Assembly (NCBI RefSeq): GCF_056746865.1
Contig: NZ_CM163382.1
Reading direction: 5' to 3' (one strand)
Length of the DNA stretch: 64,000 bases
Positions 24,820 to 27,867 of this stretch are shown here, piece after piece. The position numbers were made by a program, and so were the translations under genes. The notes below the pieces were generated by a model. It was not told the origin of the DNA and did not search any database. It was given only the letters and a program-made list of their open reading frames with translations. The first letter of the stretch is position 1. Each line of letters begins with the position of its first letter.

Positions 24820-27800
24820 ATGGACGTCAGTCGCAGACAATTTTTTAAAATCTGCGCGGGCGGTATGGCTGGAACAACGGTAGCGGCATTGGGCTTTGCC
24901 CCGAAGCAAGCACTGGCTCAGGCGCGAAACTATAAATTATTACGCGCGAAAGAGATCCGTAACACCTGCACATACTGTTCCGTAGGTTGCGGGCTATTGA
25001 TGTATAGCCTGGGTGATGGCGCGAAAAACGCCAGAGAAGCGATTTATCACATTGAAGGTGACCCGGATCATCCGGTAAGCCGTGGTGCGCTGTGCCCGAA
25101 AGGGGCCGGTTTGCTGGATTACGTCAACAGCGAAAACCGTCTGCGCTACCCGGAATATCGTGCGCCAGGTTCTGACAAATGGCAGCGCATTAGCTGGGAT
25201 GAAGCATTCTCCCGTATTGCGAAGCTGATGAAAGCTGACCGTGACGCTAACTTTATTGAAAAGAACGAGCAGGGCGTAACGGTAAACCGTTGGCTTTCTA
25301 CCGGTATGCTGTGTGCCTCCGGTGCCAGCAACGAAACCGGGATGCTGACTCAAAAATTTGCCCGCTCCCTCGGGATGCTGGCGGTAGACAACCAGGCGCG
25401 CGTCTGACACGGACCAACGGTAGCAAGTCTTGCTCCAACATTTGGTCGCGGTGCGATGACCAACCACTGGGTGGATATCAAAAACGCTAACGTCGTGATG
25501 GTGATGGGCGGTAACGCTGCTGAAGCGCATCCCGTCGGTTTCCGCTGGGCGATGGAAGCGAAAAACAACAACGATGCAACCTTGATCGTTGTCGATCCCC
25601 GTTTTACGCGTACCGCTTCTGTGGCGGATATTTACGCACCTATTCGTTCCGGTACGGACATTACGTTCCTGTCTGGCGTTTTGCGCTACCTGATCGAAAA
25701 CAACAAAATCAACGCCGAATACGTTAAGCATTACACCAACGCCAGCCTGCTGGTGCGTGATGATTTTGCTTTCGAAGATGGCCTGTTCAGCGGTTATGAC
25801 GCTGAAAAACGCCAGTACGATAAATCGTCCTGGAACTATCAGTTCGATGAAAACGGCTATGCGAAACGCGATGAAACACTGACTCATCCGCGCTGTGTGT
25901 GGAACTTGCTGAAAGAGCACGTTTCCCGCTACACGCCGGACGTCGTTGAAAACATCTGCGGTACGCCAAAAGCAGACTTCCTGAAAGTGTGTGAAGTGCT
26001 GGCCTCCACCAGCGCGCCGGATCGCACAACCACCTTCCTGTACGCGCTGGGCTGGACGCAGCACACCGTGGGTGCGCAGAACATCCGCACCATGGCGATG
26101 ATCCAATTGCTGCTCGGTAACATGGGTATGGCTGGTGGCGGCGTGAACGCATTGCGTGGTCACTCCAACATTCAGGGCCTGACCGACTTAGGTCTGCTCT
26201 CAACCAGCCTGCCGGGTTATCTGACGCTGCCGTCAGAAAAACAGGTTGATTTGCAGTCGTATCTGGAAGCGAATACGCCGAAAGCGACGCTGGCTGATCA
26301 GGTGAACTACTGGAGCAACTATCCGAAGTTCTTCGTTAGCCTGATGAAATCTTTCTACGGTGATGCTGCACAGAAAGAGAACAACTGGGGCTATGACTGG
26401 CTGCCGAAGTGGGACCAGACCTACGACGTCATCAAGTATTTCAACATGATGGATGAAGGCAAAGTCACCGGTTATTTCTGCCAGGGCTTTAACCCGGTTG
26501 CGTCCTTCCCGGACAAAAACAAAGTGGTGAGCTGCCTGAGCAAGCTGAAGTACATGGTGGTTATCGATCCGCTGGTGACTGAAACCTCTACCTTCTGGCA
26601 GAACCACGGCGAGTCGAACGATGTCGATCCGGCGTCCATTCAGACTGAAGTATTCCGTCTGCCTTCGACCTGCTTTGCTGAAGAAGATGGTTCTATTGCT
26701 AACTCCGGTCGCTGGTTGCAGTGGCACTGGAAAGGTCAGGACGCGCCGGGCGAAGCGCGTAACGACGGCGAAATTCTGGCGGGTATCTACCATCATCTGC
26801 GCGAGCTGTACCAGGCCGAAGGTGGTAAAGGCGTAGAACCGCTGATGAAGATGAGCTGGAACTACAAGCAGCCGCACGAACCGCAATCTGACGAAGTAGC
26901 TAAAGAGAACAACGGCTACGCGCTGGAAGATCTCTATGATGCCAATGGCGTGCTGATTGCGAAGAAAGGTCAGTTGCTGAGTAGCTTTGCGCATCTGCGT
27001 GATGACGGTACAACCGCATCTTCTTGCTGGATCTACACCGGTAGCTGGACAGAGCAGGGCAACCAGATGGCTAACCGCGATAACTCCGACCCGTCCGGTC
27101 TGGGGAATACGCTGGGATGGGCCTGGGCGTGGCCGCTCAACCGTCGCGTACTCTACAACCGTGCTTCGGCGGATATCAACGGTAAACCGTGGGATCCGAA
27201 ACGGATGCTGATCCAGTGGAACGGCAGCAAGTGGACGGGTAACGATATTCCGGACTTCGGCAATGCCGCGCCAGGTACACCAACCGGACCGTTTATCATG
27301 CAGCCGGAAGGGATGGGACGCCTGTTTGCCATCAACAAAATGGCGGAAGGTCCGTTCCCGGAACACTACGAGCCAATCGAAACGCCGCTGGGCACTAACC
27401 CGCTGCATCCGAACGTGGTGTCTAACCCGGTTGTTCGTCTGTATGAACAAGACGCGCTGCGGATGGGTAAAAAAGAGCAGTTCCCGTATGTGGGTACGAC
27501 CTATCGTCTGACCGAGCACTTCCACACCTGGACCAAGCACGCGTTGCTCAACGCAATTGCTCAGCCGGAACAGTTTGTGGAAATCAGCGAAACGCTGGCG
27601 GCGGCGAAAGGCATTAATAATGGCGATCGTGTCACTGTCTCAAGCAAGCGTGGATTTATCCGCGCGGTGGCGGTGGTAACGCGCCGTCTGAAACCGCTGA
27701 ATGTAAACGGTCAGCAGGTTGAAACGGTGGGTATTCCAATCCACTGGGGCTTTGAGGGTGTCGCGCGTAAAGGTTATATCGCTAACACTCTGACGCCGAA

Positions 27801-27867
27801 TGTCGGTGATGCAAACTCGCAAACGCCGGAATATAAAGCGTTCTTAGTCAACATCGAGAAGGCGTAA
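24820..27867 (+). CDS. fdnG: Formate dehydrogenase-N alpha subunit (selenocysteine-containing, Tat-exported)
   Basis: Two ORF-track ORFs (24820-25407, 25456-27867) are in the same frame separated only by TGA at 25405-25407; total 1015 codons equals FdnG length; twin-arginine motif SRRQFFK at N-terminus; the TGA is read as Sec. Confidence 0.9.
25408..25450 (+). promoter_or_regulatory. Putative SECIS hairpin directing selenocysteine insertion at the fdnG UGA
   Basis: Palindromic segment (accaacggtAGCAAGtCTTGCTccaacatttggt) immediately 3' of the in-frame TGA, the expected position for a bacterial SECIS. Confidence 0.5.

Follow-up and report, generated by a model that had tools for sequence, protein, structure and literature searches.

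The locus on the + strand at positions 24820-27867 of the stretch of DNA analysed here (64,000 nucleotides in length, referred to as the window) is almost certainly fdnG of the Escherichia coli fdnGHI operon, with the in-frame TGA at 25405-25407 serving as its selenocysteine (Sec) codon 196. The reading frame, the position of the UGA, the match to a SECIS model and the anatomy of this element, the identity of the protein, the operon partners and the occurrence of the sel genes in a near-identical genome were established in the present analysis. Actual Sec insertion, SelB binding and the enzymology are taken from the literature, the incorporation of selenium having been published for E. coli K-12 derivatives. 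The assignment of Sec to the fdnG opal codon goes back to Berg et al. 1991, as cited in PMC13188914 and PMC3636253.

Reading frame and protein identity

A program-made list of open reading frames divides the locus into two ORFs:

24820-25407, + strand: upstream ORF, 195 aa
25456-27867, + strand: downstream ORF, 803 aa

The starts of both ORFs are 636 nt apart (25456-24820), and as this equals 212 x 3 the 195-aa and 803-aa ORFs lie in one frame. Translation of 24820-27867 (+) yields 1016 codons including the final stop, and the only internal stop is the TGA at codon 196 (25405-25407), with no further stop in the interval from one ORF to the other. From 25408 onwards the frame is open, the ATG at 25456 being merely the first ATG past the TGA. 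With Sec at position 196, the fdnG product comprises 1015 aa. An initial sequence-only reading had proposed that the two ORFs share a frame and are parted by this TGA alone, which is borne out by the translation, and that the correct interpretation is one 1015-aa selenoprotein. The latter also holds, and both coordinates and length are correct. The following features were assigned to the full-length gene, with the evidence for each given in brackets:

24820-27867, + strand: fdnG, catalytic alpha subunit of formate dehydrogenase-N (frame, 1KQF_A, TIGR01553, Pfam and RefSeq)
24820-24918, + strand: Tat signal peptide, residues 1-33, S-R-R-Q-F-F-K ... A-L-A (translation)
25405-25407, + strand: UGA codon 196, Sec at the Mo-ligand position (alignment of 1KQF_A X196, fdoG TGA196 and fdhF TGA140)
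25402-25460, + strand: bacterial SECIS, span of the Rfam SECIS_3 match (RF01989 covariance model)

When FdnG (with X at residue 196) was compared with PDB entry 1KQF chain A, the alpha/major subunit of E. coli formate dehydrogenase-N, residues 1-1015 could be aligned with a score of 2400 bits, and the 1KQF chain was found to carry a non-standard residue at 196. Three substitutions occur within residues 1 to ~989 of this alignment, with D127 replacing E, F342 replacing L and A666 replacing S. The structure of E. coli formate dehydrogenase-N was reportedly described by Jormakka et al. in 2002. E. coli K-12 fdnG (b1474; 1KQF/1KQG) is the same gene as that in the window, corresponding to it end-to-end over 1015 aa with a non-standard residue 196 in both, and differing by allelic changes only. 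Other full-length, strong homologs of FdnG in the PDB are the Desulfovibrio formate dehydrogenases 6SDR and 1H0H, which are explicitly selenocysteine-containing.

The NCBIfam equivalog model for FdnG, TIGR01553, matched residues 2-1014 on profile positions 1-1009 with 1624.2 bits (cutoff 814.2). Pfam identified the domains PF04879 Molybdop_Fe4S4 (residues 44-104), PF00384 Molybdopterin (107-589) and PF01568 Molydop_binding (893-1008), with the Molybdopterin domain running across the TGA codon 196. At the Mo-ligand position the window encodes U196-H-G-P, which fits the U-H-x-P motif, and a UHxP motif is listed for FdhA selenoproteins (PMC13188914, Table 1). Cys50, Cys53, Cys57 and Cys92, named as the [4Fe-4S] cluster ligands (PMC3636253), are all present in the FdnG translation. 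The twin-arginine motif SRRQFFK corresponds to residues 4-10 of the translation, and the Tat signal is predicted to be cleaved after ALA33. The FdnG Tat signal peptide is missing from the mature protein (PMC3636253).

The SECIS element and its conservation

The Rfam SECIS_3 model (RF01989) was matched over its full length (model positions 1-59) at 25402-25460 with 84.3 bits (gathering score 63, E = 1.3e-19), the match beginning 3 nt ahead of the TGA. It is the sole gathering-level Rfam match in the 64-kb window. The hairpin itself occupies 25410-25450 inside the fdnG frame, starting 3 nt past the TGA at 25405-25407, and presents an apical loop of 3 nt, GUC, at 25427-25429. Its stem consists of a 5-bp contiguous apical helix followed by a bulged U (25421, position 17) and more pairs, amounting to 15 bp in total, with pair probabilities of 0.55-1.0 for folding within 170 nt of surrounding sequence. 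Four constraints have been formulated for bacterial SECIS elements (PMC13188914): (i) an apical loop of 3-9 nt and an upper stem of 4-16 bp, (ii) a G at loop position 1 or 2, usually followed by G or U, (iii) a UGA-to-loop spacing of 16-37 nt and (iv) a minimum free energy (MFE) of -7.5 kcal/mol or lower. The fdnG hairpin lies within all four, with its loop of 3 nt, helix of 5 bp, GU as the first loop bases, a spacing of 19 nt and an MFE of -13.8 kcal/mol.

The stability of the hairpin was also compared with chance expectation. Over the 51 nt from the TGA, the MFE is -14.6 kcal/mol, corresponding to a z-score of -0.76, and 41 of 200 dinucleotide shuffles were found to fold as well. Hairpin stability was rejected as evidence for the SECIS on the basis of this z-score. 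As the free energy is no better than that of the shuffles, the case for the SECIS rests on the covariance model, the position and the conservation among paralogs.

Alignment of FdnG with K-12 FdoG and FdhF places TGA196, TGA196 and TGA140, respectively, in one column, within the motif ARV-U-HGP. The TGA therefore falls at the conserved catalytic Sec, as had been proposed, being aligned with residue 196 of 1KQF as well as with the codons for Sec in fdoG and fdhF. At the RNA level, the fdnG and fdhF SECIS share U17, G23 and U24 (numbered from the U of the UGA), in base as well as in distance. These three positions are reportedly the SelB determinants, the work being that of Heider, Baron and Böck 1992, Hüttenhofer et al. 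1996 and Liu et al. 1998; a search of open-access literature for the loop G23/U24 and the bulged U17 as SelB determinants found no such statement. SelB binding and the necessity of the element for reading UGA as Sec have been established for the E. coli formate dehydrogenase SECIS elements (PMC13188914). The palindromic segment that the sequence-only reading had noticed in SECIS position is therefore real, coinciding with the hairpin at 25410-25450 and the 84.3-bit SECIS_3 match, and the check it had suggested, folding of the segment after the TGA and comparison with the fdhF/fdnG SECIS, returned the expected hairpin, with U17, G23 and U24 matching fdhF.

The two E. coli paralogs differ in their relation to the window gene. 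The gene fdoG (b3894), encoding the alpha subunit of formate dehydrogenase-O, likewise has Sec at codon 196, and the 59 nt of the K-12 fdoG SECIS are identical to those of the window fdnG SECIS, with the same 84.3 bits on SECIS_3. Overall, fdoG and fdnG share 76.8% amino-acid and 74.7% nucleotide identity. The loci are distinct, with fdoG adjoining fdhD and fdhE, and fdoG is not known to share the nitrate induction of fdnG. In the case of fdhF (b4079; formate dehydrogenase-H), the SECIS is likewise located directly 3' of the UGA but belongs to another Rfam family, SECIS_2 (RF01988), for which the window scores 28.8 bits compared with a gathering score of 70. FdhF has 715 aa with Sec at residue 140, and is a cytoplasmic protein without a Tat signal that forms part of formate hydrogenlyase.

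The longest exact match between fdnG and fdoG extends over 71 nt (25402-25472), from one codon before the TGA onward, and covers the SECIS; the second-longest is 35 nt. Among degenerate codons for the same amino acid, 57.9% are identical between the two genes, and a run of 20 identical degenerate codons was reached in 56 of 10,000 shuffles. Within the species, 5366 of 5433 E. coli records match the 91-nt recoding site at 99% identity or more, while identity over the whole fdnG gene region is mostly 95-99%. The 71-nt identity between fdnG and fdoG could partly reflect gene conversion or a strong protein constraint at the active site, as opposed to RNA constraint alone. As both may contribute, the evidence for RNA constraint is supportive and not decisive. 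The identity extends 12 nt past the Rfam SECIS model; these additional 12 nt could mean that the functional RNA is longer, or that gene conversion is still at work and keeps both SECIS elements matched to SelB.

Operon, genome context and the Sec machinery

Directly downstream of fdnG we find fdnH and then fdnI, the start of fdnI overlapping the end of fdnH by 8 nt, and a putative control region is located upstream:

24679-24755, + strand: putative control region upstream of fdnG (sequence reading)
27880-28764, + strand: fdnH, iron-sulfur beta subunit (TIGR01582, 482 bits, cutoff 335; RefSeq annotation)
28757-29410, + strand: fdnI, cytochrome b gamma subunit (NF007558, 486 bits, cutoff 339; RefSeq annotation)

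The control region contains a putative NarL 7-2-7 site, TACCGCT-AT-TGAGGTA, at 24679-24694 and a putative FNR-like site, TTGATTTCGCGCAA, at 24742-24755. From our reading of these bases, 24679-24694 would be the fdnG NarL site and 24742-24755 an FNR site. A generic sigma-70 scan upstream of fdnG found no consensus promoter. This is to be expected for an activator-dependent promoter, and fits FNR/NarL dependence yet is uninformative. A NarL 7-2-7 site has been reported for fdnG (PMC2718512). Past fdnI, a terminator-like hairpin is present at 29610-29635.

The neighbourhood in K-12 is alike, with the order fdnG-fdnH-fdnI, yddG upstream, yddM/adhP downstream and narZ/narU nearby. The strain background of the window is phylogroup-D-like (E. 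coli 042 / CFSAN061770), in contrast to K-12. A 3.2-kb query around fdnG found matches in 5425 of 5426 complete E. coli genomes, annotated as fdnG/fdnH; several of these genomes, E. coli 042 and CFSAN061770 among them, match it at 100% identity. The window as a whole differs from the CFSAN061770 sequence NZ_CP023142.1 by 4 mismatches over 64,000 bases. In the RefSeq annotation of CFSAN061770, fdnG is one intact 3048-nt CDS (WP_012602782.1); it bears no pseudogene flag, and fdnH and fdnI come next.

The selABCD genes were read in the near-identical NZ_CP023142.1 and across the species, as a proxy for the window's own genome. All four are annotated as intact in NZ_CP023142.1:

70557-70651 of NZ_CP023142.1: tRNA-Sec (selC)
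143609-145000 of NZ_CP023142.1: selA
144997-146841 of NZ_CP023142.1: selB
2267620-2268663 of NZ_CP023142.1: selD

Using the K-12 coordinates for the sel gene queries, we found selC in 5424, selD in 5425 and selAB in 5425 of the 5426 complete E. coli genomes. The presence of selABCD, which the sequence-only reading had asked to be confirmed, is thus supported by proxy in the near-identical genome and by at least 5424 of the 5426 complete genomes of the species.

The mechanism involving SelA, SelB, SelC and SelD, as established for bacteria, is summarised in PMC13188914. SelD provides selenophosphate, and SelA converts Ser-tRNA(Sec), the product of selC, into Sec-tRNA(Sec). The latter is bound by SelB-GTP, the C-terminal domains of which bind, in addition, the apical portion of the mRNA hairpin that lies just downstream of the UGA. 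With the UGA in the A site, the tethered SelB competes with release factor 2 and delivers Sec-tRNA(Sec), allowing translation to continue in the same frame. FdnG, at 1015 aa, has a Tat signal, a [4Fe-4S] domain and bis-MGD molybdenum domains, Sec196 being located in the active site. It combines with FdnH and FdnI into formate dehydrogenase-N, which faces the periplasm and is nitrate-inducible; electrons from formate are transferred by this enzyme to menaquinone, and reach nitrate reductase from there.

Decoding of the UGA and competing interpretations

Mass spectrometry of FdnG from E. coli K-12 derivatives identified the peptide V-U196-HGPTVASLAPTFGR (PMC3636253), and exactly this sequence is encoded in the window. 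Cys was never found at FdnG position 196 by mass spectrometry, and in sel mutants FdnG translation terminates at codon 196 (PMC3636253). These observations bear on the suggestion that the UGA is read by a near-cognate Trp or Cys tRNA, or by some other SECIS-independent route, as opposed to Sec-tRNA(Sec) and SelB. Low-level near-cognate readthrough of UGA does exist in E. coli, and the inserted amino acid is not provable from the sequence by itself. However, the consistent absence of Cys at 196 and the termination seen there in selC mutants (PMC3636253) argue against such a route, as does the presence of a high-scoring SECIS together with the complete sel machinery. In addition, the Sec position is common to the selenocysteine-containing Desulfovibrio formate dehydrogenase structures 6SDR and 1H0H. 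We therefore consider SECIS-independent readthrough to be very improbable.

It could also be supposed that fdnG is a pseudogene created by a nonsense mutation, the 803-aa ORF being a dead remnant. A naive ORF list does give two ORFs, and both fragments stand as separate proteins in public collections. This would not account for a TGA that occupies the same alignment column in K-12 fdoG and fdhF, nor for a recoding site so uniformly conserved in the E. coli records (5366 of 5433 with 99% identity or more), nor for the SECIS that follows the TGA. The crystallised protein is one chain of 1015 residues with a non-standard residue at 196, published mass spectrometry places Sec at this position (PMC3636253), and RefSeq carries no pseudogene flag. 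Inactivation by a nonsense mutation is accordingly extremely unlikely. Least probable of all is the existence of two independently translated genes, one for an iron-sulfur protein of 195 aa with the Tat signal and the other for a molybdopterin protein of 803 aa: while an ATG at 25456 is available to the 803-aa ORF and the 195-aa product can exist, as translation stops at codon 196 in sel mutants or under selenium starvation (PMC3636253), such an arrangement would lose residues 197-212 (from the TGA to the ATG at 25456), which the 1KQF chain contains and which show conservation in fdoG and fdhF, and it is at odds with a Pfam Molybdopterin domain (107-589) that straddles the TGA, with the TIGR01553 equivalog that matches 2-1014 as a single stretch and with the published peptide V-U196-HGPTVASLAPTFGR, which spans residue 196. 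The pseudogene, two-gene and non-Sec readthrough interpretations were all rejected, each against several lines of evidence, in favour of a single Sec-containing FdnG.

Separate protein entries exist for the exact 195-aa and 803-aa fragments, each of them on at least 1000 contigs, which demonstrates that Sec-unaware callers do split fdnG. The expectation that automated callers would report either a pseudogene or two genes is therefore correct for Sec-unaware callers, but does not apply to NCBI PGAP/RefSeq, which gives one intact CDS. A 195-aa member of the same protein cluster was observed to bear an unrelated product name. Under selenium limitation or a shortage of SelB, a stop at UGA196 would free a 195-aa fragment containing the Tat signal and the [4Fe-4S] region. 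Such a fragment might serve some regulatory or physiological purpose in its own right, as opposed to being waste, although we regard this suggestion, jointly with that of an extended functional RNA or continuing gene conversion at the SECIS, as highly doubtful.

Sec196 of fdnG and its SECIS are already known, having been a textbook case since 1991, and there is nothing scientifically new in their occurrence here; the case is modelled by Rfam, NCBIfam and PGAP alike. The locus constitutes a clean positive control, demonstrating that a recoded stop is recognisable to a reader provided with the sequence only. It is also a reminder that the split fragments produced by Sec-unaware callers still fill public protein collections.

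Sequence identity and split reading frames at the selenocysteine codon

The fdnG gene (24820-27867, plus strand) encodes the alpha subunit of formate dehydrogenase-N and carries an in-frame TGA at codon 196, as does its K-12 paralog fdoG. The two genes were found to share an exact match of 71 nt (25402-25472), which on its 3' side extends 12 nt beyond the span of Rfam SECIS_3 (25402-25460). This is the longest exact match across the 3-kb fdnG/fdoG alignment, for which overall identity is 74.7%. Gene conversion is a possible origin of the shared block, as is an extended constraint on either the RNA or the protein.

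A stand-alone N-terminal piece of FdnG (195 aa, corresponding to 24820-25404 and ending before the selenocysteine) is on record for at least 1000 contigs. The same cluster contains EFN8991448.1, also 195 aa in length; its product name, 'sulfate ABC transporter substrate-binding protein', appears to be a misannotation inherited from a split reading frame.

Related genomes and mobile elements

A comparison of all 64 kb with E. coli CFSAN061770 (NZ_CP023142.1) reveals differences only at positions 4790, 30418, 40717 and 57773, none of these four falling within fdnGHI. The isolation source of CFSAN061770 is raw milk cheese from Egypt. Two features in the left part of the window involve insertion sequences:

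175-5017: genes for a PAAR protein of type VI secretion, VgrG/TssI and an M35 peptidase, then a hypothetical gene and the remnant of an ISAs1 transposase
8744-10092: IS1397, an IS3-family element with a programmed-frameshift transposase, between nhoA and yddE

The former has the appearance of an orphan VgrG-effector islet. E. coli 042 is without IS1397 at the nhoA/yddE site, but is otherwise collinear with the window.

Genes flanking the fdn operon

The surroundings of fdnGHI contain the following features:

11153-19289, minus strand: narU, together with the operon for the second nitrate reductase (narZ, narH, narW and narI by annotation)
22348-23448, minus strand: porin of 366 aa, named 'ompC' by PGAP
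29610-29635: terminator-like hairpin between the convergent fdnI and higA-like yddM
29638-30200, minus strand: RelE/ParE-family toxin and HigA-family antitoxin (yddM), directly downstream of the fdn operon
61779-64000, minus strand: ydeP, FdhF/YdeP-family molybdoenzyme, interrupted by the window's right end

The hairpin may act as a bidirectional terminator; sub-threshold Rfam matches to naRNA4 and ES036, representing REP-like sequences, were located within 29484-29635. The 366-aa porin is encoded in the yddG/fdnG neighbourhood and not at the ompC locus. This protein is presumably an OmpC-family paralog with a misleading gene name.

YdeP, which is linked to acid resistance, is a distant relative of FdnG (weak match to NF007406). 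Both narU and the nitrate reductase operon are located approximately 5 kb upstream of fdnG, and formate dehydrogenase-N is therefore encoded near genes for the type of nitrate reductase to which it supplies electrons.
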